64,000 nucleotides of DNA from a virus (Duplodnaviria > Caudoviricetes), in the IMG/VR virus record IMGVR_UViG_3300033072_001141, positions 17,794 to 81,793 of that record, one strand, 5' to 3'. Below, piece by piece: positions 1 to 34,622 of this stretch. The notes beneath the pieces are model-generated. The model saw only the letters and a list, made by a program, of their open reading frames with translations, searched no databases and was not told where the DNA came from. The first letter of the stretch is position 1. Each line of letters begins with the position of its first letter. The position numbers and the translations under genes are program-made.

Positions 1-131
1 AAGTCGATCAGCTCCGCCCTGGACTTGTCGTCGAACGAGGTCTCGCTCGGGCGCGGCGGATCGAACTCGGGTCGGCGGATGGCACCGTCCGCGTTCTGCT
101 GCTCGACCAGGCGCATCATCGCCGAGTACAT
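1..131 (-). CDS. Hypothetical protein, 5' part only (runs off the window)
   Basis: ATG at 131 after AAGGAGAGG RBS at the end of the HNH gene; reads MYSAMMRLVEQQNADGAIRRPEFDPP..., open to position 1. Confidence 0.65.
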   Translation of the reverse strand, partial: MYSAMMRLVEQQNADGAIRRPEFDPPRPSETSFDDKSRAELID

Positions 132-133
132 AC

Positions 134-661
134 TCACCTCTCCTTCGACTCGTGGGCACGCATCCACGCTGCGATGCGGACGTGTTCTTCTGGCGTTCCG
201 TTGCTCTTGAGCGTGTTGGCGCGACCACTGATCACCGCGATGTTGCCGCACACATAGCCCAGCGACGGCTCAATCCTATCGAGCGTGGGCGAATGGTCAC
301 GGCGTCCCTTACCACGACCCTGCTCCAGCTTGATTCCGAGCACCGGACAGAACTCCGGAACGAAGATGTCATCGACCGAGATCTCGAACGGAACGCCCTT
401 CCGCTTTGCCCTGGCACGAGCCGACAGCCAAAGCTGTCTTGCTCTCGTCCTGTGAAGCCACTCGCGGCGCCACGCGGTGTACTTCTCGTGGTTTTTCTCT
501 CTGTACTTGGCGTGCGCTCGCGATCTGCACGCCTTGCACTGGTGGCCGCGTGCCCTCCTCTCGCTCTCCGGCTTGCTCTGCTGGCAGGTCGAGCAAACGA
601 ACGTCTGCTCTTCCGCCGGCTGAACAAGACGAAGATGCGAATCGAACATGACCGTCCTCAC
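134..661 (-). CDS. HNH/His-Me finger homing endonuclease with N-terminal CxxC pairs
   Basis: CSTC..CKAC, 'ARARAKRKGVPFEI', 'CPVLG', 'SPTLDRIEPSLGYVCGNIAVISGRANTLKSN'; start may be ATG 649. Confidence 0.8.
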   Translation of the reverse strand: MRTVMFDSHLRLVQPAEEQTFVCSTCQQSKPESERRARGHQCKACRSRAHAKYREKNHEKYTAWRREWLHRTRARQLWLSARARAKRKGVPFEISVDDIFVPEFCPVLGIKLEQGRGKGRRDHSPTLDRIEPSLGYVCGNIAVISGRANTLKSNGTPEEHVRIAAWMRAHESKER

Positions 662-1395
662 TTCGCGCGGCGCGCGGGCTTCTTGGGGGCTCGACCGTCG
701 CCGCTCTTGATCTCGCCGTCGTCGGCGAAGACCCGGAACGTCCCTGACCGCTGCCCGTTGTTCACGTCCGGCGGTGCCGAGTTCGGGCTGGTCGATCCTC
801 CGCGCTGGGACGAGGTCCTCACGGCGAAGTCGATCCCGAAGCGTTCACTCATGGCGCGCGCGGGGACCGGCACGCGGCCCTCACGAAGAGAGCGGATGAG
901 CGATCCCAGCTCGGGAACCGCCCTGTTCGCCGCCGCCGCCTCCAGCCTGCTGACCCAGCCGCGCCACTCCGTCCACTGCTCGTCGGTGGACTCGAACGCC
1001 GGCACGACGATGCGGTGCTGAACGAAGCTCTGGAGAAGGTCGATGAGCTTGTCGGTGGCGGGCCCGCGCCTCCAGCGCCCCGCCTCCTTGACCGCCCTGC
1101 CCGCCACCTCCGCGAGCCGCGACACCCACCGGAGCCAGTCCACCTCCGGGTCGGAGGTGGCCGTGTCGCGCTCCATGAGCGCCGAGAGCCGCACGAACGT
1201 CCTCGACTCGCCCTTCTGGCCGGCCGCCACGATCTCCTTCGCGGACATCTTCCGGTCGTCGTCTGGAACGCCGCACGCACGCTTGAGCGTGCTGAGCGCG
1301 ATGGCGATAGCCTGCTTCTGCGGCCTCCCGGCCTTCATCTCAGTAGAGATGTTGCGGCTAACAGCGCTGGCTACGCACGACTTGTCAAGCGGCAC
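658..1395 (-). CDS. Phage protein with 'NISTEMKAGRPQKQAIAIALS' N-terminal motif, possibly virion-associated
   Basis: GTG start after GGGGAGG RBS; N-terminal motif recalled from many phage hypothetical proteins. Confidence 0.7.
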   Translation of the reverse strand: MPLDKSCVASAVSRNISTEMKAGRPQKQAIAIALSTLKRACGVPDDDRKMSAKEIVAAGQKGESRTFVRLSALMERDTATSDPEVDWLRWVSRLAEVAGRAVKEAGRWRRGPATDKLIDLLQSFVQHRIVVPAFESTDEQWTEWRGWVSRLEAAAANRAVPELGSLIRSLREGRVPVPARAMSERFGIDFAVRTSSQRGGSTSPNSAPPDVNNGQRSGTFRVFADDGEIKSGDGRAPKKPARRAK

Positions 1396-2002
1396 GGCGG
1401 ACCTCCCCCTTCTGGTTCAGTTCACGGATGTTGGCGATGATCTTCGTCCGTGCTTCAAACTTCTCTTGCCCGATCGGGCCGCCGTTCGCCGCGATGTCGT
1501 CGAACTCGACCACCAGTTCGGCCTGCCTCTTCTTGACCACGAGCATTGAAGCGACCGCATCGAGCAGCCGACGCGCCTGCGCCGACGTGACGGTCCACTG
1601 CCAACTTGTCTTCCACTTCTCGTGGGTCTTCTTCTTGCGACAGACGTGACCACCGATCTTCCGCTTGAGCCACTCGACGAGGGGATAGCTGGTGTTGGTG
1701 ACGGTCACGCGGAGCTGCGCTTTGGCTGCGTTGCCCCAAGTGAACCCAACGCATCCCTCTCCGTCGATGATGCCGGCGATGTAACCGCGCTCCGCGTCCG
1801 AAAGGACCAGCGGTCCAAGCCTGCGCCGCTGAGCGTTCACCCGCGGAACGCCAGCCTCCTTGAGAGCCGCAGACACCGTCGCGTCACCCACTCGCTGATC
1901 CTTGGCGATCTTTCGGATCGACCACCCGGCGCGGTAAAGATCCACGATCCGACCACGCCGGTCGTTGGCCATGTGCTCAATGGCGCTCTTATCCAGCGGC
2001 AC
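1385..2002 (-). CDS. LAGLIDADG homing endonuclease with N-terminal HTH
   Basis: 'GYIAGIIDGEGCV' motif; HTH-like 'WSIRKIAKDQRVGDATVSAALK'; start re-called at GTG 2002 after CAGGAGG RBS. Confidence 0.85.
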   Translation of the reverse strand: MPLDKSAIEHMANDRRGRIVDLYRAGWSIRKIAKDQRVGDATVSAALKEAGVPRVNAQRRRLGPLVLSDAERGYIAGIIDGEGCVGFTWGNAAKAQLRVTVTNTSYPLVEWLKRKIGGHVCRKKKTHEKWKTSWQWTVTSAQARRLLDAVASMLVVKKRQAELVVEFDDIAANGGPIGQEKFEARTKIIANIRELNQKGEVRRAA

Positions 2003-2234
2003 GTCGAGCCTCCTGACGGAGCTTGGCCATGTACTCCTTGACCTGGTCGGATCCGTTGCGCTCGATGTAGTCGCTGACCGCCCGCGAGAGGATGTCGCCG
2101 GGCTCGCACTTCTCATCGACCGCCTGGAGCCCGAGCACGTCCCAGACGGAACGCGAGATGAGCATCATCATGGCGTCTCCGCCACGTGTCACCTCGCGTT
2201 CGAGGGGGGTCTCGACTGGTTGGGCCTTCGCCAC
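1989..2234 (-). CDS. Small hypothetical protein, possible ribbon-helix-helix
   Basis: 81 aa; 'MLISRSVWDVL...GDILSRAVSDYIER' fits an RHH pattern. Confidence 0.5.
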   Translation of the reverse strand: MAKAQPVETPLEREVTRGGDAMMMLISRSVWDVLGLQAVDEKCEPGDILSRAVSDYIERNGSDQVKEYMAKLRQEARRAAG

Positions 2235-2275
2235 GCACCCGAATCTACCGGATGCCCGGCGCCCGGTCTACGCGA

Positions 2276-3055
2276 TCAGCGGTAGCCGCCCTGGGGGATG
2301 CGCGGCCTCAGGTAGGAGGGTAGGACCCTCGACCCGCGCATGTTCTTGCGGTCGTGGAACCGAACCCGGTTCCCGAACTGCACGACCTCCGCGAACTCCA
2401 GGCTGACCTCCAGGATGCGGGGCACGCCGTTCGGGAACCACGCCTCGTAGGTCACGTCGCACTGGGTCATGACGCACACGACGTAGTCGGATCCGTCGTG
2501 CCCGAGCCTGGTGTTCGGGAGGACCAGGATGGCCTTGGGAGGCTCGTAGGCCCGAAGGTCCGCGCCGTCGCCGTACGACGGGTAGGTGAAGTACCGGAGC
2601 CAGTTCACGGCCGACCGGATGTCCATGTCCCTGGTGCCCTTCTGGATGGCCGTCAGGAGGGACACGTCGGCGTACGGGTCGTCACGCCCCGAGGTCTCGT
2701 CGGGGGGTGCCGTGTCGGTCGTGAAGACCGCCTGGAAGGAGATCCGGCGCTCGCCGCCGTGGGTCCACTGGTAGATGGGATGCGACCCGCCAGGGATCGA
2801 CCTCGGGTTCCACTCGGCGCCCCGGCTGTCCGTCAGGCTCTCGGGCCAGTATTGCAGCGCCAGGTAGGTGTTCCTGGCCGTCTCGAACGAGTCGAACGTC
2901 GAGAGGTCACCTGTCGGCGCGTCGGCGAAGTCGTTTGCCCACGGCACCGTCTCGCCCGGGGCCGTGTCCATCGCTCCGATGAGCGCCTGAGCCAGGCGCG
3001 TCTCGTGCTGGACGTTGAGCGCCTGGGTGATGATGTTCTGCGGGACGGCGACCAC
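2276..3055 (-). CDS. Tail tube initiator (CIS-tube / T4 gp48-54 / P2 gpU-like)
   Basis: 'LQYWPESLTDSRGAEW...PIYQWTHGGERRISFQAVF...PPKAILV...VCVMTQCDVTYEAWFPNGVPRILEVSLEFAE'. Confidence 0.7.
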   Translation of the reverse strand: MVAVPQNIITQALNVQHETRLAQALIGAMDTAPGETVPWANDFADAPTGDLSTFDSFETARNTYLALQYWPESLTDSRGAEWNPRSIPGGSHPIYQWTHGGERRISFQAVFTTDTAPPDETSGRDDPYADVSLLTAIQKGTRDMDIRSAVNWLRYFTYPSYGDGADLRAYEPPKAILVLPNTRLGHDGSDYVVCVMTQCDVTYEAWFPNGVPRILEVSLEFAEVVQFGNRVRFHDRKNMRGSRVLPSYLRPRIPQGGYR

Positions 3056-3058
3056 GGA

Positions 3059-3250
3059 TCACTCCGTGATGAGTCCGCCGCGGATCGCGAGCTGGCGGAG
3101 CAGCTCGTCCTTCTCGGCCTTGTTCATCGACTCGAACGTCTTCCCGCCCGAAGAGGGCGCGGGGGCGATCCGCTCGTTCATCCTGTCCGTCGCCGCGTCG
3201 GCCTGGGGGTCGATGCCGCGGACTGGGCGCGCAGACTTGGCCATGGTCAC
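3059..3250 (-). CDS. Hypothetical protein
   Basis: 63 aa ORF coupled to its neighbours. Confidence 0.5.
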   Translation of the reverse strand: MTMAKSARPVRGIDPQADAATDRMNERIAPAPSSGGKTFESMNKAEKDELLRQLAIRGGLITE

Positions 3251-3618
3251 TCCTCCTGCTTCTGCTTCTTCCGCCTGTTGATGATGAGCGTGACCTCGCT
3301 CCCGCGCACGGAAACCTGCGCCAGCACGAAGTGCCGCCGGAAGGTGCCGATGACGATGCCTCCGATGGGCATGTGACCTGGCTTCACGTGGTCGGCGAGG
3401 ACCTCGACCGCGTTGGTCTCCGTGTTCTGCGCCAGGTAGACGAGATGGTCCCCTTCGGCGGAGCAGTCCACTTCGTAGTCGTCGTCGAGGCCGAGGTCGC
3501 GCCCGTCGGCGATGAAGGAGCCCTTCTTCACGGAGAGAACGGACCCGTTCATGGACACGTCCATGTCCACTTCGAGTCCGGTCAACGCCGGAAGCACGCT
3601 TTCCACGATCTGCATCAC
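3247..3618 (-). CDS. Hypothetical protein (tail region)
   Basis: 123 aa ORF, 4-nt overlap with the downstream gene. Confidence 0.6.
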   Translation of the reverse strand: MMQIVESVLPALTGLEVDMDVSMNGSVLSVKKGSFIADGRDLGLDDDYEVDCSAEGDHLVYLAQNTETNAVEVLADHVKPGHMPIGGIVIGTFRRHFVLAQVSVRGSEVTLIINRRKKQKQEE

Positions 3619-3627
3619 GCGCTCCGA

Positions 3628-5787
3628 TCAGGTCTGAGTCCCGAACAGGATGAAGTTGAACGTCGCCATGCGGCCGGCCACATCGACGGCGAGGCCCGTC
3701 GCGGTGTCGAACATGGCGAAGTAGTGGGCCGTCGGCGACACCTGGACGTACGCGAAGGAGTACCCGAGCGTGTTGGTCGAAGCGAACCCGACCGCGTCAT
3801 CGATCCCCACTCCGGTGGTGACCACGATGATGTGGCTGCCGCCCGCGAGCTGCCTCACCTGGGCGAAGTTGTAGCCGCCGACCACCGTCATGAGCGTCGG
3901 GAACGCCACGCCGGTGTTGGACTTGCCCCACGACTTGCAGATGTTCTTGGCGTAGAGCGTGTTCTTCGCCGTCGTCGAAGTGGGGCTCGGGTTCGACTCG
4001 GTCGTGGACGGTCTGTAGAAGTGCAGCGAGCCGTTCTCCAGGAGCATCTTCCCGGCGCCCACCTCGTATCCGCCGGGCGAGAACGGCACGCCGCCGATGC
4101 CGGCTCCGCCGAGCATCATGTTCGCGTAGTCCCACCCACGCGGAGAGTCCACGGGGATCGACGTGAGCTGGTCGAGCCAGCCCGCCGCGACGGAGCTGAT
4201 CATGTTCATCTCGAACACGCCGAAGATCGTGTTGCAGAAGGAGAACTTCTGGGCCTTCTGCGCGGCTCCGCTGGTGTTGTCCGCGTACCAGAGCGCGTCC
4301 GCGACATCCCACCTCGCGTTGATCGTGAACTCGAACCCGATGGCGGTTCCGGCGGAGGTGATGTCCTCGAACCTCGTGAGGTAGAGGCGGCACCTCTCCG
4401 TGATGCCGCTCAGCGTGCCCTCGTAGATGAGGACGCGTCGATCGCCGGTCGTGTCGCCCATGACCAGACGGGGGATCTCCGACTGGTCGGTCCCGGTGAA
4501 CCCAGAGAACTCGATCTGACCGTTCAGCAGCACGTCGCGCCAGAGACCCTGGCCGCGCATGAGGCGGAACACCTGCTCGATGACCGGAGGCCCCGCGAGC
4601 TGCGACGCCTTCACCATGAGCGCGGTTCGCTGGAGGAACTCGGCCATGGTCGTCGGCGCGTTGCTGTCGAACCCACCGCCGGGGTTCAGCGCGAGGCTGT
4701 CGAACGCCTGGGTGTCGCCCAGGTGAGCCTGCTCGAACACGTCGTCGATCGGGTGGATGCCCTCCACCCAGCACTTCACGTCGTCGAAGTAGATGGACCC
4801 CGCCGCCAGCGACGCGCCGTTGTTGTTGATGCCGACGTGCGGGCGCATCCAGACCGCGCCGGTGGGCACCTCGACCACACCGTCCACGAGCGTGTACGCG
4901 AACGACCCCGACAGCGTGTTGTCCTCGATCCACACCGTGGAGAGGAGGGTCATGTCGTTGTCGTAGAACAGCAGGGCCATGCCCTGGTGACCGCCCACCG
5001 CGATGCCTGGCCACGCGTTGCCGCGCATCCTCAGGCGCCCGCGCACGTACATGCCCGCGGAGACGCGCACGCGACGGTCGTGGATCAGCAGCCGGTTGTT
5101 GACCACGCCTGGGGCCGGCTGTTCGAGCTGGAACTCGCGGGTCCCCTCGTACGGGGCCGTCGTCGAGATGCGGTAGTTCGGCGTGCCGAACCCCGTGCCG
5201 GTCCACCCCTCGATCCCGAAGAACGACGAGAAGCCGGCAGCGAACGCGCGCTCGAATCCGCCGTTCTTGATGATCTGGTGCCAGGAGTCCGGAGCACGAT
5301 CGTCCCACGCCATCCGACGCGCGGTCGGCGTGATGTTCGCCGCCGGGATCGGACCGACGCCAGGGACGACGACGCGCCCGAGGATGACGACGAACGGCGC
5401 CTCGGCCACCGGGGCCGTGAACAGCTCGGCCTGCGTGTAGGCGCGCCAGTTCACGACGGTGGTCGAGCCGATCGTGTAGCCGACGAAGAGGCAGATGTAG
5501 ACCGTCTGGCCAGCCAGCGCGGCGAGGTCGAGCGAGACGATGCCGTCCTGCCTGACGGTGAACTGGAGGTCGTTCACGTCCTGGTAGGAGTAGATTGAGT
5601 CGCCCTCGACCGAGTCGGGGACGATGTTGATGCCGAACCCGGCGCCGGTCGTCTGGAGCTTGCCGCCCCGAACGACGCCCGAGCCGACGAGGCCGAAGAG
5701 CTTCTTGTTCAAGCCCTGCGAGACGTAGGGCTCCTTGAATCGCACCTGCGCGATGGAGTCCCCGGGGTTGTCGAGCGTCGTCGGCAT
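3628..5787 (-). CDS. Tail fibre/receptor-binding protein with carbohydrate-binding-module-like domain
   Basis: 719 aa, beta-rich; 'IIKNGGFE...GW' CBM4/9-like start; position after baseplate genes. Confidence 0.6.
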   Translation of the reverse strand: MPTTLDNPGDSIAQVRFKEPYVSQGLNKKLFGLVGSGVVRGGKLQTTGAGFGINIVPDSVEGDSIYSYQDVNDLQFTVRQDGIVSLDLAALAGQTVYICLFVGYTIGSTTVVNWRAYTQAELFTAPVAEAPFVVILGRVVVPGVGPIPAANITPTARRMAWDDRAPDSWHQIIKNGGFERAFAAGFSSFFGIEGWTGTGFGTPNYRISTTAPYEGTREFQLEQPAPGVVNNRLLIHDRRVRVSAGMYVRGRLRMRGNAWPGIAVGGHQGMALLFYDNDMTLLSTVWIEDNTLSGSFAYTLVDGVVEVPTGAVWMRPHVGINNNGASLAAGSIYFDDVKCWVEGIHPIDDVFEQAHLGDTQAFDSLALNPGGGFDSNAPTTMAEFLQRTALMVKASQLAGPPVIEQVFRLMRGQGLWRDVLLNGQIEFSGFTGTDQSEIPRLVMGDTTGDRRVLIYEGTLSGITERCRLYLTRFEDITSAGTAIGFEFTINARWDVADALWYADNTSGAAQKAQKFSFCNTIFGVFEMNMISSVAAGWLDQLTSIPVDSPRGWDYANMMLGGAGIGGVPFSPGGYEVGAGKMLLENGSLHFYRPSTTESNPSPTSTTAKNTLYAKNICKSWGKSNTGVAFPTLMTVVGGYNFAQVRQLAGGSHIIVVTTGVGIDDAVGFASTNTLGYSFAYVQVSPTAHYFAMFDTATGLAVDVAGRMATFNFILFGTQT

Positions 5788-5799
5788 CTGCTTCTCCTA

Positions 5800-6417
5800 C
5801 TACCTCGGCGGCGAGAATACCGCATCCTTTGGATCCCACCCAGCCTTGAGCCGCGAGTGGATGGTGACCGCCTTCACGCCGGAGACCTCCGACCAGCCGG
5901 CCACGCACTTCGCGACCCCGTCGATGGTCAACATGACGTTCGACCGCCGGTTCCGCTGTTGCTGGCGCCACGTCTCCCACCGAACGTTGCCAGGTTCGTA
6001 GCCCTTGTCGTTGTCGATCCTGCCGACCGAAAACCCACTCCCTGGACGCCGACCAATGTGCTCCAGGAACAGCGTGAAGCCGCCCTCGCCAATCCATTCA
6101 GCGCACACGCCGATCCCACGATCGTGGTAGTCGGCGCGATCACGGTGCCCCGGCTTCGTGCGAGCCAGCATCGCCTGCCAGGCTGCGTACTCCGCTGACC
6201 GTCTGTCCTTCGAGCTTCCTCCAGACTCTCCGTGTCCCACCGACTTGCATCTGGTGCATGAAACCCTCTGCGGAAGCTCGTACGACCGCATCATCTTCTC
6301 GGTGCCACAGTCGCATCGGCAGAGTTGACGTGTGACGCCGCTGGATCCATCGGGAAGTGACACCACCGTCCACTTCCCAAACCGCGCTCCGACCGGATGC
6401 ACAACCCTGTGTCGCAT
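5800..6417 (-). CDS. HNH/His-Me finger homing endonuclease
   Basis: 'GKWTV...CRCDCG', 'YAAWQAMLAR', 'RGIGVCAEW', 'SVGRIDNDKGYEPGNVRW..QQRNRRSN'. Confidence 0.85.
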   Translation of the reverse strand: MRHRVVHPVGARFGKWTVVSLPDGSSGVTRQLCRCDCGTEKMMRSYELPQRVSCTRCKSVGHGESGGSSKDRRSAEYAAWQAMLARTKPGHRDRADYHDRGIGVCAEWIGEGGFTLFLEHIGRRPGSGFSVGRIDNDKGYEPGNVRWETWRQQQRNRRSNVMLTIDGVAKCVAGWSEVSGVKAVTIHSRLKAGWDPKDAVFSPPR

Positions 6418-12872: not shown

Positions 12873-14987
12873 TCATGCTGCCGCCACCTGTCCGGTCAGG
12901 GTGACGGTTCCCTTGGTCACCACCTGCTTCGACTCGATGACGAGGTTGCCGTCTCCATCGACGAGCAGAGCGGGTCCGGTGATGCGGAAGATCGCGTACA
13001 TGATTCCGTCCACGCCCTTCTGACCGGTCGATGGATCGGGGACGATCGAAGCGTAGAGGTCGCTGAGGCGCAAGGACTTCCCGAACGGGCGGACCTGGAG
13101 GAGGCCGTCGAGCGCCTTGCGGACGTTCGAGAGAACGGTCGCCTGGACGTACCCGTCCCGGATGCCGATCGTGCCCGTGATGTCCGCGCGGACCAGGTAC
13201 GGGCCGCCGGAGACAACCTCCACCACCTGGGTGACCTCCTTCCGCTCTTCGAGGTACGCCTCCAGGCTGCGCATGAGGGCGATCGGGGGCTCGGTGAGGA
13301 AGCCGTCCACGTCCCGGGTGAGGATGGGCACCTGGACGAGGTTCGCCTGGCAGTCGGCCGCGAGGAAGGCATCGACGTGATCGAAGATCGCTTGCAGCTC
13401 GTCCTCGACCAGGTTCTCGAACTGGGTCGTGACCCTCGTGATGATGGCGGCGATCGTCGTCTGCTGCGCGGCCAGCTCGGTCGTCTGGACGGAGAGCGCG
13501 TTGGTCACGTCCACGATCGAGGCGTTCGCGTCCGCCGTCGCCTGCTCGATGTTCCCGGTCGCCGTGACGATTGCCTGGACCTGAGCTTCGACGTTCGAGA
13601 GCTGCGTCTTGATGTCGTTGAACGCCGCGTCCTTGAGCAGAAGCGTGGCCGCAGCAAGCCCCTCGTCGGCTCGCACCGACGCGTTGTTCGCGATGACGCG
13701 GATGGACTGTGCCGCCGACCGCGCGTCGATGGCGTCGCCCGCCGCGCTCGGCGTCTGCGGAGCAGTCACGATGGCGTCCAGCGACGCCTGGATGTCGGTC
13801 GTGACGGCCGTGTCGATGTCCCCGCGCGCGCCGTCGATGGCGACGCGGTTGGCCTCGGCGGAGTTGGCCAGCGCCGTCACGTCGTCCGCGACCGGCTGCA
13901 CCAGCCCGCGGATGTTGTTCAGGAGCGCCTGGAGTCCAAGGTCGTTGTCGGCTCCACGAGCCACGAACGCCTGCGCCACGGCCACGGAGCCGGCGAGAGG
14001 GTCGCTGAACGTCTGCGAGAGGCCGACGTAGTCCTCCTGCGTCACGGCGACGTTGCGGGCCTTGAAGAACCGCGGCGCGTTCGCCTTGGCGGTGGTCGTG
14101 TCCTCGGGGTCGGCTCCACCCGAGCTGGGCGCCGGGTTCGTGATGGTGAGGGGGATGGCCTGGAACATCACCACCAGAGGCGCGACCACATCGGTGATCG
14201 TTCCGTTCAACACGAGGCCGCTCTTGCCAGAGGTCGCGGTGTAGACCACCACGATGCTCGCGCCGGAGGCGGGCACGTTGCCGGCGACGCCGTCTCCGAA
14301 ACGAACGGTCGTGGGGTCCGAGTTGAAGTCCACCTCGACCTGGTTGGTCTGATCGAAGGTGATCAGGTCCGTGATGTCCCACGGCACCCCGGCCACCGTG
14401 ACCGAGACGGTGCCCTCCGCGACGAACTTCCCGTCGCCCGGGTTCAGCCGGAAGACCTGGTTCTTGGACCCGTTGGACGTGAACGTCTCGGTCCTGGTCG
14501 TGCCCTCGCGGCAGGCGATGGTCCTGGCTGGCGAGAGGGGGCCCTCTCCGGCCAGGAAGGTCACCGCCTCGGTCGCCTCGAACACCAGGCCGGACGGGCC
14601 CTCGAACTGGAAGCCGACGGGGACGGGGACGTTGAAGGCGTAGATCTGCCGGAGGTTCACCTCCAGATCCACGGAGGCGGCGATGCCGCCAGCCATCTTG
14701 TAGCCGATCTGCCGACAGAGCCGGTTGACGGCCTTCCTGGTCCGCGCCGTCAGGAGATAGCTCTCCGACGCCTGGCGATCGATGTAGAAGCTCAGCGTCT
14801 CCGCGGCCCACGCCACGATGTCGATGAGCATCTGGCCGGTCCCCGAGACGACGAAGTCGTTGAACTCGGTGACGAAAAGGGTCTGAATCCTCGCGACGAT
14901 GTCATCGACGAAGCTGAAAAAGTCCTTGCCGGCGAAGCGGGCCCTGTTGATCTGCGCGGCAGGGCTCTCGATCTGGATCGGATCCAT
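12873..14987 (-). CDS. Baseplate J / T4 gp6-like wedge protein with helical insertion
   Basis: 'KDFFSF...GQMLIDIVAWAAETLSFYIDRQASESYLLTARTR...IGYK', 'VRFGDGVAGNVP', 'GGADPE...NAPRFF..RNVAVTQEDY'. Confidence 0.85.
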   Translation of the reverse strand: MDPIQIESPAAQINRARFAGKDFFSFVDDIVARIQTLFVTEFNDFVVSGTGQMLIDIVAWAAETLSFYIDRQASESYLLTARTRKAVNRLCRQIGYKMAGGIAASVDLEVNLRQIYAFNVPVPVGFQFEGPSGLVFEATEAVTFLAGEGPLSPARTIACREGTTRTETFTSNGSKNQVFRLNPGDGKFVAEGTVSVTVAGVPWDITDLITFDQTNQVEVDFNSDPTTVRFGDGVAGNVPASGASIVVVYTATSGKSGLVLNGTITDVVAPLVVMFQAIPLTITNPAPSSGGADPEDTTTAKANAPRFFKARNVAVTQEDYVGLSQTFSDPLAGSVAVAQAFVARGADNDLGLQALLNNIRGLVQPVADDVTALANSAEANRVAIDGARGDIDTAVTTDIQASLDAIVTAPQTPSAAGDAIDARSAAQSIRVIANNASVRADEGLAAATLLLKDAAFNDIKTQLSNVEAQVQAIVTATGNIEQATADANASIVDVTNALSVQTTELAAQQTTIAAIITRVTTQFENLVEDELQAIFDHVDAFLAADCQANLVQVPILTRDVDGFLTEPPIALMRSLEAYLEERKEVTQVVEVVSGGPYLVRADITGTIGIRDGYVQATVLSNVRKALDGLLQVRPFGKSLRLSDLYASIVPDPSTGQKGVDGIMYAIFRITGPALLVDGDGNLVIESKQVVTKGTVTLTGQVAAA

Positions 14988-15493
14988 TAGGCCACCTGCT
15001 TCCAGGTCCGCCCGACCACGATGTGGTTGACGGTCTGCTCGGCCACCCCGAACTCACGCGCGAGTTCGCGCTGAGTGGAGCCCTCGCGAACCCTCGACTT
15101 GATGACCGATACCTGAGCCTCGGTCAGCCTGGCGCGAACGTGAGCGCTTCCGCGAGGTCTTGCTTCCGGCTTCGTCCTGGCGCCGCTACGGTCCCCTGCG
15201 GCGGTTCTGCCCTTGGCACCTCGGTCAGCCGCGTTGTCCGCATCGGACCCGGCGAAAAGGTGGTCGGGACGAACGCAGCCGGGGTTGTCGCACTTGTGAA
15301 GAGCGCACATCCCATCTGGAAGCGGACCGTTCGTCAGCTCGAACGAAAACCTGTGCGCCCGTACGGTCTTGCGCCTGGTGATCGCGAAGCGGCCATAGCC
15401 CTTCGATGTGGCACCAAGCCAGATCCAGCAGGTGTCGGTCTTGCTGACCTTCGACCAGAACCGGTCTTCGATGGCTTGCGTCTTGACGAACAC
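14987..15493 (-). CDS. HNH homing endonuclease with C-terminal HTH
   Basis: 'RFWSKV..TDTCWIWLG..GYGRF..RAHRFSF..LHKCDNPGCVRPDHLF.G...N' plus 'RLTEAQV..I...TQRELAREFGV'. Confidence 0.9.
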   Translation of the reverse strand: MFVKTQAIEDRFWSKVSKTDTCWIWLGATSKGYGRFAITRRKTVRAHRFSFELTNGPLPDGMCALHKCDNPGCVRPDHLFAGSDADNAADRGAKGRTAAGDRSGARTKPEARPRGSAHVRARLTEAQVSVIKSRVREGSTQRELAREFGVAEQTVNHIVVGRTWKQVA

Positions 15494-15545
15494 GGTGCCG
15501 CTGCTCCTTCACTCCCTGGACCAGGGAGCACTGCTTCTTCGACGA

Positions 15546-15914
15546 TCACGCGCTGAACGAAGTGCTCGCCCGTCGGATGACTCCTACCACCTCGAAGGTC
15601 ACATCGACCAGGATCTCCACCCCGTCCGAGGTCTCGCGCTCGGTCACCTCGACGAAGAGGATGCGCGCCCGCGGCTCTCCAGCCGAGATCGCGCGGCGAA
15701 CTTCGTGGTCTACCCGCGCCCGAAGCAGGGGCCCGGAGTTCTCGAAGATGAAGCTGTAGGTGTCCGACCCTGCGTCCGGTCGCATGACCCTGGATCCACG
15801 GGGGGTCTGGAGGATGCGGGCGATGTTGTCCGCGACCACGTCCTCGTCGGTCCTCGGAGCTGGCAGCCCGAACGCCGAACGGGTGAACGGGAAGGCAATC
15901 CCTCTGATCGTCAC
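15546..15914 (-). CDS. Baseplate wedge/sheath initiator (gp25/gpW-like)
   Basis: 'VADNIARILQTPRGSRVMRPDAGS...FIFE...AISAGEPRARI'. Confidence 0.9.
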   Translation of the reverse strand: MTIRGIAFPFTRSAFGLPAPRTDEDVVADNIARILQTPRGSRVMRPDAGSDTYSFIFENSGPLLRARVDHEVRRAISAGEPRARILFVEVTERETSDGVEILVDVTFEVVGVIRRASTSFSA

Positions 15915-16423
15915 GCCGCCCTCCAGTTACGGCCCGCCAGGGCCATCCAGATTGCCCCCTGTGACACGCCGTATTCGGCCGCAAGCGCCCTCTGCGTCAC
16001 CCCTCCCTCGACGTATCGCGATCGAATCTTCGCGACCTGCTCCTCCGTAAGCCTCGACCTTCCGTTCTTCCCCCCCGCGTTTGAGGTGCCCTTGTAAGAG
16101 GCTCGGCCCTTGGAGGCCATGTCCCTCATATTGTCTCGCTGCGTACCGATGAACAGGTGGTCGGGTCTCACGCACCTCGGGTTGTCGCAGCGGTGGAGCA
16201 CGCTCATTCCCGGCGGAAGCTCACCGTTCGTCAGTTTCCACGCGATCCTGGCCGCTCCCTCCGGTCGCCTGGATCCATCCGCCTTCGACCCAACGTTGAG
16301 GAACCCATAGCCGTTGCCGAAGTAGGCGCCATCCCACTCCCAGCAGTCGCTCGGACCGGCTCCGCAGAAGCGGACCTTCTCCCAGAACCGCGTCTCTAGC
16401 GGAGTGGTGAACCGGATGGTCAT
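15911..16423 (-). CDS. HNH homing endonuclease with C-terminal HTH
   Basis: 'RFWEKV...CWEWDG...GYG...LHRCDNPRCVRPDHLFIGTQRDNMRDM'; start re-called at ATG 16423. Confidence 0.9.
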   Translation of the reverse strand: MTIRFTTPLETRFWEKVRFCGAGPSDCWEWDGAYFGNGYGFLNVGSKADGSRRPEGAARIAWKLTNGELPPGMSVLHRCDNPRCVRPDHLFIGTQRDNMRDMASKGRASYKGTSNAGGKNGRSRLTEEQVAKIRSRYVEGGVTQRALAAEYGVSQGAIWMALAGRNWRAA

Positions 16424-17121: not shown

Positions 17122-17853
17122 CTACTTCACCTTGACGGTGCCCGAGAGGAAGTTCCTCCAGCGCGCCTTGATCCCCTGGAACTGCGCCGCGTTGATGGGC
17201 GTGCCCGACGGGCCCATGCCGGTGGGCACGGTGAGCGCGTTGATGGCGTCGATCAGCTCGTCGAGCAGGCCCTTGAGCGTGTCGCCGAGCACTGCCGCCT
17301 CGTTCGCGTCGAGCCCGATGTAGACGGTCTTCCCGCTCGCGTTGAACGCGCGCACGTTGCCGTCGTTGTCCATCTCGACGTAGGCGCCGTTCGCGTGCTC
17401 GATCCGCACCTTCTTGGCGTTGTCGCGCCCGTCGAGCGTGATCTTGTGCCCGTGAGGCGTCCACCATCCCCACGTGTCCGGGTCGCGGAGGTCCTCGGGG
17501 ATCTGATCTCGTCCCCAGACGCCCGCCTCCCAGACCGGCATGTCGAGCTTGCCGTTCTCGAAGGTGACCCAGACGATTGAGTCCACCGGCGGTGGCGCGC
17601 GGAACCCGTACCCGTTTCCAGCTCCACCTGGGAGCTTGGGGTACGCGATCCGCGAGACACCCTCCGCGTCGCCCACGGATGGAACGCGGACCCTGATCCG
17701 GCCCTGGTTGTTGTCGTCGGTGTTGCCGACGACGATGCCCCTGTAGACGCCGTAGTAGAGCCGGAACGACTCCAGCCCGTGCATCATGAGTTGGTCGAGG
17801 AACCGGAGGAACCCGGTGGCCGTGTAGGCGGGACCCGCACGCGTACCCATCAC
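17122..17853 (-). CDS. Baseplate spike (gp5/gpV OB-fold)
   Basis: 'YGVYRGIVVGNTD...GRIRVRVP...GYGF..PP.VDSIVWVTFENG..DMPVW'; C-terminal 'VPTGMGPSGTPIN'. Confidence 0.85.
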   Translation of the reverse strand: MMGTRAGPAYTATGFLRFLDQLMMHGLESFRLYYGVYRGIVVGNTDDNNQGRIRVRVPSVGDAEGVSRIAYPKLPGGAGNGYGFRAPPPVDSIVWVTFENGKLDMPVWEAGVWGRDQIPEDLRDPDTWGWWTPHGHKITLDGRDNAKKVRIEHANGAYVEMDNDGNVRAFNASGKTVYIGLDANEAAVLGDTLKGLLDELIDAINALTVPTGMGPSGTPINAAQFQGIKARWRNFLSGTVKVK

Positions 17854-32872: not shown

Positions 32873-33508
32873 TCAGAGCCGCGCGTCGTCGTTCCTCGTC
32901 ACGGCGCTCACGATCTCGACCGCCGCGGAAGTTGCGCGCGCGGCCACCGGGCTGACCGTCGCCAGCGTCAGTTCGGCCACATGCTCTGGCTGGACCTCAA
33001 GCTCCTGGATGGACACGTCCGAGGAGGTCGCGTCGAAGTCGGAGCCCGCCTTGTACCTCGTCGGCAGGCAGTCGTAGAGGATCCACCCGCGGCCTGGAGT
33101 TCGTAGTGCTGCCTGGAGGAACGCCGTGTCGGGGAACGAGAGATTCGAGCCTGTGACCTGCGACTGCACCTTCCAGCCGAGGAAGTGGACGATCACGAGC
33201 GTGCGCCGAATCGGCTGCCGCCCGACGATGGCCCCGGTGATCCAGTTGTAGAAGTCGGAGTCGTAGAAGCGCGCCCCCCTGGACATCGAGACCGGACCTG
33301 CCTCGGCCTTCTTCACGATCCGGCGCTTGTACTCCCAGTTCCCCGGTTGCACATCGCGCAGCTCGACGGAGATCTCCGGAGCGGTGCAGGCCGAGAAGCC
33401 GAGCGCCGGATCGAAGATGCTGAGCAGCGAGTTCCCGCTGGGTCCCGACGCATCGAAGACCCAGAACGGGAACGCCTGCATCATGTCGAGAAGCCGCGCT
33501 CTCGCCAA
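32873..33508 (-). CDS. Tail tube protein, paralogue 2 (T4 gp19-like)
   Basis: 'GFSACTAPEISVE...GNWEY...VSMSRG..FYNW...W.LYDCLPTRYKAGSDFDATSSDVSIQELEV'; TTG start. Confidence 0.85.
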   Translation of the reverse strand: MARARLLDMMQAFPFWVFDASGPSGNSLLSIFDPALGFSACTAPEISVELRDVQPGNWEYKRRIVKKAEAGPVSMSRGARFYDSDFYNWITGAIVGRQPIRRTLVIVHFLGWKVQSQVTGSNLSFPDTAFLQAALRTPGRGWILYDCLPTRYKAGSDFDATSSDVSIQELEVQPEHVAELTLATVSPVAARATSAAVEIVSAVTRNDDARL

Positions 33509-33511
33509 AAC

Positions 33512-34324
33512 CTACCGTCCTTCCGAGAAGATACCGAACTTGCGTTCGCAACGGATGCCGAGGCTGTCAGCGTAGATTGCAAGCCCAAGCGCGTCCACGT
33601 TCTGACCGAAGAACCGGAGCTGTCCGATGCCGGTCTTCAACATCGACCTCGTACCCTTCGCACCATACTCCATCGCGAGTGCCTGAGCGTCGTCGAGCAT
33701 CCGAACGCTCTTCGATGTCAGCGCGCCAACCAGGTACGACCTCGTGCGTCGCTTGTCCGCCCAGCGGTTCCACGACCCATCGGAGTCCCAGAGTCCGCGA
33801 AGGAAGTGGGTGCGGTGGCCGCCGGCCTGGGGGATGCGGATCCTCTCTGCCTTGTTGCCGTAGCTGAGGCCCAACATCTCCTCGGCCAGCTCCACCAACG
33901 TGATGCCGCCGAGGTAGACGCTGACGCAGCCCTTGCGCTCGTAGAGGGAGCCGCCGCCGCTGAGGTCGCGAACACGCTCGCACACCTCCCGCGTCCCGCA
34001 CAGATGGACCGCCCTCCGCTCGATCCACCCGTCGCCGGAGATGAGGCCCCATGCCCACGCGCTGGCCGGCGTCCACGTCGCCCAAAACTCGCTCTTGAAC
34101 GGCAAGACGCGGTTCATGCGCCCGTTGGCCGAGCGGTAGTCCTCCGGCGTCCGAAGAACCCCGCGCGCCTCTAGGAAGCGCCTTGCACGGTCGCGAGGGA
34201 ACCCTGTGACCCTCGATGCCGCCGCGCTGGAGCCCAGTTCCTCGTAGGCACGAAGGAGCGCTGACTCCATCTCTGGAGTTACCTCACGTCGGTTCCAGGC
34301 AGCGGCGCCGACTACGAACACCAC
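33512..34324 (-). CDS. Two-motif LAGLIDADG homing endonuclease with N-terminal HTH
   Basis: 'AWAWGLISGDGWI' and 'HFLRGLWDSDGSW'. Confidence 0.85.
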   Translation of the reverse strand: MVFVVGAAAWNRREVTPEMESALLRAYEELGSSAAASRVTGFPRDRARRFLEARGVLRTPEDYRSANGRMNRVLPFKSEFWATWTPASAWAWGLISGDGWIERRAVHLCGTREVCERVRDLSGGGSLYERKGCVSVYLGGITLVELAEEMLGLSYGNKAERIRIPQAGGHRTHFLRGLWDSDGSWNRWADKRRTRSYLVGALTSKSVRMLDDAQALAMEYGAKGTRSMLKTGIGQLRFFGQNVDALGLAIYADSLGIRCERKFGIFSEGR

Positions 34325-34330
34325 GCCTGC

Positions 34331-34342
34331 ATCCTAGCACAA
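34331..34342 (-). promoter_or_regulatory. Putative extended -10 promoter TTGTGCTAGGAT, 6 nt before the endonuclease GTG
   Basis: TGnTAnnnT, overlapped by a CCTAGC/GCTAGG inverted repeat; no SD before the start. Confidence 0.5.
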
Positions 34343-34346
34343 GAGG

Positions 34347-34622
34347 CTAGGACTGGGCGACGATCTCCATGGCGCGCGGAAGCGGATCCGAGCACCGAGG
34401 GAAGTGCATGGCGCTGGTCTCCGGGTACGCGGCCGTGCCGAACTCGGCGACCATCACGCCGTCTCGCCATGCGCGAGACCGGCCCGGGTACTTCCGGTCC
34501 TTTCCGCCGGGCACCGTCACAGTGATGATGTCCACGGTGACCTCGTCGGCCTCGATCACCTCTCCCGATTCGAGTCTGACCTGCATGAGCGCCTCCATGT
34601 CGAGCAGCCGCGGACGAGCCAC
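34347..34622 (-). CDS. Small protein whose first 9 codons match tube paralogue 2 (MARPRLLDM)
   Basis: Direct sequence comparison with 33482-33508. Confidence 0.6.
   Translation of the reverse strand: MARPRLLDMEALMQVRLESGEVIEADEVTVDIITVTVPGGKDRKYPGRSRAWRDGVMVAEFGTAAYPETSAMHFPRCSDPLPRAMEIVAQS

Follow-up and report, generated by a model that had tools for sequence, protein, structure and literature searches.

A candidate homing cassette pairing a LAGLIDADG endonuclease with a replacement gene start in an uncultured T4-like phage

The 64,000-nucleotide stretch analysed here (the window) spans positions 17,794 to 81,793 of the IMG/VR virus record IMGVR_UViG_3300033072_001141. Near its beginning, an open reading frame (ORF) for a LAGLIDADG-type homing endonuclease lies between two phage genes, A and B, and its start is nearly a copy of the start of gene B. 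We consider it probable (roughly 80%) that a mobile cassette, composed of the endonuclease and a foreign gene B start segment (type B2), lodged after codon 33 of a resident gene B of another type (B1). This cassette of about 0.7 kb would comprise the endonuclease body, followed by a B2-type ribosome-binding site (RBS), a start codon and the first 31 codons of gene B. The resident Shine-Dalgarno sequence, start codon and first codons, which overlap the stop codon of gene A, would now initiate the endonuclease, and gene B would be kept whole because its translation begins at the start carried by the cassette, within the final codons of the endonuclease. The two copies encoding MPLDKS would then be the 5' ends of two old alleles of gene B.

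Two gene starts and two types of gene B

Both starts are read on the minus strand. At site A, GGAGG (2013..2009) and a 6-nt spacer precede GTG CCG CTG GAT AAG AGC (2002..1985); at site B, GGAGG (1406..1402) and a spacer of the same length precede GTG CCG CTT GAC AAG TCG (1395..1378). Each encodes GTG-initiated PLDKS, and the five differences among the 18 coding bases (CTG/CTT, GAT/GAC, AGC/TCG) are all silent; from GGAGG through AAG, the two sites form a direct repeat matching at 21 of 26 bases. The original prediction had described these twin starts, each with its own GGAGG, and had placed the second copy in the 3' end of the endonuclease gene, all of which we confirm. Site B indeed lies within the last codons of the endonuclease ORF (C-terminus ..RRAA, TGA 1387..1385), and site A within those of gene A (C-terminus ..RRAAG, TAA 1991..1989), so that the likeness extends to the other frame, with ..RRAAG-stop at the end of gene A and ..RRAA-stop at the end of the endonuclease. 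In that frame, CTG GAT AAG at site A gives the GGA TAA of gene A, and CTT GAC at site B gives the GCT TGA of the endonuclease. Two of the five silent differences are thus functional in the other frame, where they make the two different overlapping stop codons. GAT AAG occupies the site A position in all A-adjacent junctions of relatives, and the C-termini of two endonuclease homologues, P0004 (..DAA) and P0005 (..RRAA), suggest the same CTT GA overlap in their cassettes.

Empty-site alleles were looked for in relatives and found at six loci (L051, L058, L059, L054, L055, L065), all of which keep the order tube-A-B-C. Gene A homologues lie directly upstream of B in each and abut or overlap it, with no gene between, and every empty site with a readable start is of type B1. 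L051 is a complete, endonuclease-free genome of 186 kb, in which A and B overlap by 14 nt, as at site A of the window, and the gene A stop is a TAA inside the GAT AAG codons of B. The closest endonuclease-free sister is known as two proteins (P0028 and P0030, each on one 36,291-bp contig); its gene A, to which the gene A of the window is 84% identical, ends ..RRAAG and its B is a GTG-started B1, so that the pair matches site A in both frames. Occupancy of the locus is sporadic among close relatives: it is filled in the window and, as far as can be judged from their proteins, on the P0004 and P0005 contigs, and empty in the six relatives above.

The first ~36 residues of B are a widespread small phage domain (phrog_2423) that always starts M-P-L-x-K. 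Because MPL.K is conserved across this family, this N-terminus is ancestral in B, and it is its presence on the endonuclease that is unusual. Stand-alone Lys-rich proteins of 44-57 amino acids that correspond to the N-terminal ~36-45 residues of B (window 1258-1395) are also found in about 45 other viral contigs (loci L002-L050).

Full-length homologues of B fall into two types over their first 31-33 residues. Type B1, which ends ..GTQHVA before the common ..IALS.., is found in P0016, P0018-22, P0024, P0025, P0030, L051, L058 and L059, and also in the deep relatives L055, L063 and L065. Type B2, ending ..KQAIA, is found in the window, P0017, P0031, P0023/L052 and P0026. The types meet the shared body at a sharp boundary, and their distribution does not follow the phylogeny of the remaining protein. 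In three B2/B1 pairs, the N-terminal segments are 47% identical and the rest of B is 100% (P0017 vs L051), 98% (P0031 vs P0016) or 88% (window vs P0016) identical; between the two B2 proteins of the window and P0017, the figures are 73% and 71%. From these comparisons, B1 appears to be the usual type of the clade and the B2 segment to be foreign. The B2 segments of the window and P0017 (73% identical) and the nuclease bodies of the window and P0004 (70% identical) have diverged in step, which fits a unit with its own history.

The original prediction had read the twin as one sequence synonymously recoded. It does not stand in this form: the copies appear to be the 5' ends of two old gene B alleles, in which 53% of the residues at codons 2-33 differ. 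The silent differences at the twin would be old allelic divergence that predates the insertion, and they need no recoding, because both copies retained the N-terminus typical of the family for as long as each belonged to a functional gene B. Deliberate recoding of the AGC/TCG serine switch was rejected as homologues vary freely at codon 6, with TCG, TCT, TCC, AGC, Thr or Arg.

Of special interest are P0004 and P0017. Residues 1-33 of P0004, whose nuclease is 70% identical to that of the window, are identical to residues 1-33 of the L051 B protein, and the frame then continues directly into a helix-turn-helix (HTH) domain. P0017 is a B2-type B protein whose body, after the swapped segment, is 100% identical to that of L051. 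The two are probably neighbours, since both are of Logan-only origin and have the same longest contig (9,220 bp). Taken together, the P0004 relic and the P0017 mosaic suggest that an L051-like phage gained, after B1 codon 33, an endonuclease body followed by an RBS, a start codon and 31 B2 codons. The relic in the window has 12 codons, namely B1 codons 1-6 and about six codons that align with B1 codons 28-33, and it appears to have been shortened by a 21-codon in-frame deletion relative to the 33-codon relic of P0004.

The endonuclease and competing explanations

The ORF 2002..1385 is predicted to encode a single-motif LAGLIDADG homing endonuclease of the I-CreI/I-MsoI type, with an N-terminal HTH and presumably acting as a homodimer. 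The original assignment to the LAGLIDADG homing endonucleases is borne out by PDB profiles, a structural model, Foldseek and PHROGs. A profile of the ORF and four homologues matched I-MsoI and I-CreI over their full length (E 4e-16 to 1e-8), and the protein matched phrog_5046 at 4e-26. The AlphaFold model (predicted local distance difference test score, pLDDT, 81.5) has an N-terminal three-helix domain, then a helix-strand-strand-helix-strand-strand-helix core (H69-82, E83-87, E97-104, H106-116, E119-123, E133-137, H140-153), with one core per chain. Its top Foldseek matches were I-CreI and I-MsoI, with a template modelling score of 0.66-0.72 on the target and a sequence identity of ~19-20%. 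In Pfam, HTH_23 (residues 14-48) and LAGLIDADG_3 (residues 70-148) both fall marginally below their cut-offs. The LAGLIDADG motif (residues 74-83, Y-I-A-G-I-I-D-G-E-G) aligns with those of I-MsoI and I-CreI, and D80, G81, E82 and G83 are invariant in five homologues, the acidic residue being Glu and not Asp. Glu is found at this position in some characterised members. The wider family is large, with 11,480 library proteins matching at E<=1e-3, and close relatives are confined to one 50%-identity cluster. IMG/VR protein-pattern scans, with the nuclease alone and with a three-sequence profile, found no other copy, and three complete relatives (186-198 kb) have no homologue of this LAGLIDADG nuclease anywhere.

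Which start the endonuclease uses bears on what its relic does. The ORF listing missed the start at 2002, as the original prediction had remarked, by extending the frame to an upstream ATG at 2116. We favour 2002, in agreement with that prediction: GGAGG lies 6 nt upstream with no comparable Shine-Dalgarno sequence before the ATG at 1972, the frame from 2002 stays open through the 63-nt in-frame deletion (and in P0004 through all 33 codons), and the public gene call of the record begins there (205 amino acids, P0003). The overlap with the gene A stop also fits translational coupling, as proposed for mobE, segC, segF and mobA among the seg and mob genes of T4 (PMC2988022). An alternative, which we judge unlikely yet the most serious of those considered, shares the same origin and takes the upstream MPLDKS copy as a dead scar, with the endonuclease beginning at ATG 1972 (MANDRR..) and nothing made from 2002. 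Besides the presence of that ATG, it draws on the HTH, which begins only at residue 14, and on the gene call of P0005, which starts three codons further in and has no relic, so that the relic is dispensable for the enzyme.

In neither start region did RNA folding show an RBS-sequestering hairpin (z -1.1 and +2.5). The RNA around the cassette-borne start of gene B (1355-1445, minus strand) is markedly less stably folded than its shuffled controls (z = +2.5), which would fit an open translation-initiation region.

How the cassette would move can be outlined from the sites. A single-motif LAGLIDADG enzyme would be expected to recognise roughly 20 bp. The P0004 genome keeps B1 codons 1-33 intact, so the target should not lie wholly within them; it should span the insertion point and include B1-specific codons ~29-33 and the common codons from 34 onward. 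The enzyme would cut B1-type genes near codon 33/34, and the carrier would be immune, since the cassette interrupts its target and its B2 segment departs from B1 (at 4 of 12 bases just before the boundary). In a mixed infection, a B1 phage would be cut and double-strand-break repair would copy the cassette from the carrier, with homology provided on the left by gene A and the relic and on the right by the remainder of gene B. At its origin, the cassette was probably acquired through an illegitimate, one-sided repair mediated by microhomology, as described for T4 (PMC2988022); a cut B1 end would thereby have become joined to the 5' region of a nuclease gene situated upstream of a gene of type B2. 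The cleavage substrate of the original prediction, with 2002-1985 joined to the sequence past 1378, would join B1 to B2 in an artificial chimera; in nature, the empty site is an entire B1 gene, such as L051:5001-5765.

A nuclease that has lost its mobility and persists from an old invasion as a domesticated or decaying gene (an HTH regulator or an exclusion nuclease, for instance) appears improbable. The relic in the window is eroded, and B there is only 88% identical to that of the nearest empty sister, which speaks against a recent insertion. However, the ORF is intact, the catalytic motif is invariant, and a 70%-identical copy occurs in a background that would be 100% identical to that of an empty phage, if P0004 and P0017 are taken as neighbours, which points to recent movement of the family.

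Still less credible is a model in which the A/B junction was simply duplicated at insertion, as a target-site or tandem duplication, and the copies then drifted silently or were recoded under selection where they stood. The direct repeat does bracket the nuclease ORF, and all the coding differences are silent. Past codon 7, however, about half of the residues differ beside a gene body that is 100% (P0017 vs L051) or 98% (P0031 vs P0016) identical, so this divergence cannot be a local product of the time since insertion; P0004 has a relic of 33 codons, and synonymous variety at these codons is the norm among homologues. Contrary to what the original prediction had implied, the twin is therefore not an 18-nt target-site duplication: the downstream copy was imported up to codon 31, and the upstream copy is a relic.

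Among random pairs of ORF starts in the source genome, the frequency of sharing at least five of the first nine residues is 2.7e-4, and 21/26 repeats spaced 300-1500 nt apart occur 0-2 times per simulated window. Chance, or convergence forced by a shared stop/start overlap signal, can be dismissed: although the frames are coupled (..RAA-stop uses the same bases as M-P-L in the other frame) and GGAGG at 6 nt is simply a good RBS, the null frequency is low, MPL.K is the N-terminus conserved in the whole B-domain family, making the upstream copy homologous, and, decisively, homologues carry much longer versions of the same twin, with P0004 matching L051 B at 33 of 33 residues.

Several points weigh against an insertion of a mobile cassette as we describe it. 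The P0005 gene call is without a relic and the window has an ATG at 1972, so the relic may be untranslated. The Pfam LAGLIDADG_3 match scores 22.2 bits against a cut-off of 22.5, and both the cutting activity and the target site are predictions. A palindromic target just past the B1/B2 boundary was considered and rejected, as a 16-bp near-palindrome in L051 is not conserved in the other empty sites. The adjacency of P0004 and P0017 rests on their matching 9,220-bp contigs and Logan-only origin. Finally, for any single pair of genomes, gain and precise loss are indistinguishable; the polarity rests on the deep relatives all being B1 and empty.

Gene order and similar layouts at other loci

The source record is an 81.8-kb IMG/VR virus record with a completeness estimate of 43%. 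It belongs to an uncultured, G+C-rich T4-like phage with gp25, gp19-like and tail-fibre-like genes. The tube-like gene, gene A, the endonuclease ORF, gene B, a second nuclease gene and gene C follow one another on the minus strand throughout (Table 1). DNA of positions 600-3100 had no match among 50,697 phage records, and a scan for promoters and terminators over 500-2400 found nothing bearing on the nuclease. We rejected intron hosting of the endonuclease, as no intron or other RNA family of Rfam was matched at E<=1 in window positions 1-4000. An intein does not describe the locus either: the ORFs are separate, each with its own stop and its own RBS.

Table 1. Coordinates of the features around the endonuclease gene in the window
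Feature	Position	Strand	Remarks
Tube-like gene	3055..2276	minus	
Gene A, 81 aa	1989..2234	minus	last codons and TAA stop (1991..1989) overlap the resident gene B start, which would now be that of the endonuclease
Site A, resident A/B junction	1985..2013	minus	GGAGG, 6-nt spacer, GTG, codons 2-6; GAT AAG gives the gene A TAA
Putative B1-type relic, resident gene B 5' end	1967..2002	minus	fused in frame to the endonuclease
LAGLIDADG endonuclease ORF, 205 aa from GTG 2002	1385..2002	minus	alternative ATG 1972
HTH, within the endonuclease ORF	1859-1963	minus	
LAGLIDADG core, within the endonuclease ORF	1406-1816	minus	
LAGLIDADG motif, within the endonuclease ORF	1754-1783	minus	
Site B, putative cassette-borne junction	1378..1406	minus	GGAGG, 6-nt spacer, GTG, B2 codons 2-6; CTT GAC gives the endonuclease TGA (1387..1385)
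Putative imported B2-type 5' segment of gene B	1303..1406	minus	RBS, start, codons 1-31, to the B1/B2 convergence (..A|IALS..)
Gene B, 245 aa, conserved phage gene of unknown function	658..1395	minus	phrog_2423 match over the N-terminal 45 residues
Second nuclease gene, endonuclease VII / HNH type, between B and C	134..649	minus	phrog_3322, 2e-37
Gene C start	1..131	minus	gene runs off the window; RBS within the last codons of the second nuclease gene

Three nuclease genes lie within the first 6.4 kb of the window. Another HNH endonuclease gene (phrog_374, 2e-38) is found at 5800-6417 on the minus strand, upstream of the tail-fibre-like gene (5787..3628), and has no N-terminal twin.

The twin layout, in which the start of a nuclease gene resembles the start of the next gene, was found at at least four further nuclease genes of the source genome. 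The second nuclease gene (649..134) starts exactly at the expected start of gene C, its first ~10 codons (649..620) are a twin of the N-terminus of C, and gene C has a new start at 131, whose RBS lies within the final codons of this nuclease. The gene is absent between B and C in L051, L052, L058 and L059, and the three complete relatives have no homologue of it. Further along, on the minus strand at 14987-16423, gp25 (15914..15546) lies between two related HNH_3 genes; M/V-T-I-R opens both gp25 and the upstream HNH_3 gene (start 16423), in each case behind ..GGCGGC, and the Arg codon is CGG in one and AGA in the other. At 32873-34622, also on the minus strand, an ORF of 91 amino acids (34622..34347) shares seven of its first nine residues with a gp19-like tail tube gene starting at 33508, and a two-motif LAGLIDADG_3 gene (34324..33512) lies between them. 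This locus (34622-33508) is probably another cassette that has swapped a gene start, with its relic-bearing part now a separate ORF. Before the start of the window (G000:C1:3817-4332, minus strand), the N-terminal 13 codons of an HNH gene have a twin at the start of the next gene, with differences at most of the wobble bases.

The A/B junction itself is occupied in another phage. In L052, a complete 198-kb genome, a Pfam-HNH gene lies at this junction on the opposite strand (4288-5010), flanked by a nine-codon B2-type start relic, which still gives the TAA of gene A, and by a rebuilt gene B start. This hot spot is thus used by a second nuclease family. That the layout recurs at several loci of one genome, and that another phage has a nuclease of a different family at the same junction, suggests that phage annotation pipelines miss it as a matter of routine.

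We tentatively propose, as a possibility that we rate below even odds, that such start-swap homing is general in this T4-like lineage, with nucleases at five or more loci capturing the Shine-Dalgarno sequence, start and first codons of late virion genes and supplying a foreign replacement. If so, nuclease synthesis would be slaved to the translational coupling of the captured gene, and these elements would drive the turnover of N-terminal alleles in structural proteins. The retained twins may also pass an N-terminal signal to the nuclease.

Comparison with known systems

The Seg and Mob nuclease genes of T4-type phages adjoin conserved genes, and their ORFs overlap the end of the upstream gene; translational coupling has been suggested for some of them, as noted above. 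These nucleases cleave nuclease-free relatives with co-conversion of the flanks, and one-sided illegitimate break repair has been proposed as their route to new sites (PMC2988022). Our endonuclease gene is similarly wedged beside conserved genes of a T4-like phage and overlaps the upstream gene. Unlike it, the T4 Seg and Mob enzymes are of the GIY-YIG or HNH families and their genes lie between genes, not inside one, and the review of T4 mobile elements makes no mention of duplicated coding ends of neighbours (PMC2988022). An endonuclease gene within a phage coding sequence, with the host function kept, is exemplified by mobE in nrdA of Aeromonas phage Aeh1 ('genes in pieces', Friedrich et al. 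2007, cited in PMC2988022). There, the host gene is split into two polypeptides, whereas gene B here would stay one through its replacement start segment.

By its predicted fold, its motif and the length of its catalytic core, the endonuclease of the window resembles I-CreI and I-MsoI. The genes of those two enzymes reside in group I introns of organelle rRNA genes, and the proteins lack an N-terminal HTH. A literature search for a phage precedent of a cassette that swaps a gene start found none.

If our reading is right, a selfish nuclease can live in the translation start of an essential-looking gene without killing it, by taking the expression signals and delivering a spare. Homing would then change the protein and not just the DNA, since a conserved N-terminal domain of 31-33 residues gives way to one with just 47% identity to it. 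The L051 phage and the P0004/P0017 contig would form a natural recipient and donor pair with flanks that are probably identical, and the expected cut site is narrowed to a few codons around B1 codon 33/34. This makes a phage LAGLIDADG enzyme directly testable.

The closest known systems are the mORF 'gene hybrids' of fungal mitochondria, found in atp6 of Allomyces macrogynus and in atp6, atp9, cox2 and nad3 of Glomus sp. (PMC3630166). In these, a LAGLIDADG (or GIY-YIG) ORF in a conserved gene brings a divergent, foreign gene end that is joined in phase to the core of the gene; the displaced native end remains adjacent and groups with close relatives, the inserted end does not, and many of the differences between the copies are synonymous (PMC3630166). 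The arrangement in the window and in the P0004/P0017 pair corresponds in these respects: the nuclease lies inside a host coding sequence, the host gene is whole by virtue of the cassette-borne end, and it is the displaced native end, not the foreign inserted one, that groups with relatives. In all described mORFs it is the 3' end, and so the C-terminus, that is replaced, whereas the phage cassette would replace the 5' end, including the RBS and start codon. The displaced piece in the phage is, moreover, fused to the N-terminus of the nuclease and would supply its translation start, and the setting is a phage genome with overlapping stop/start junctions and not a mitochondrial one. The phage cassette works like an mORF, of which it is a mirror-image variant.

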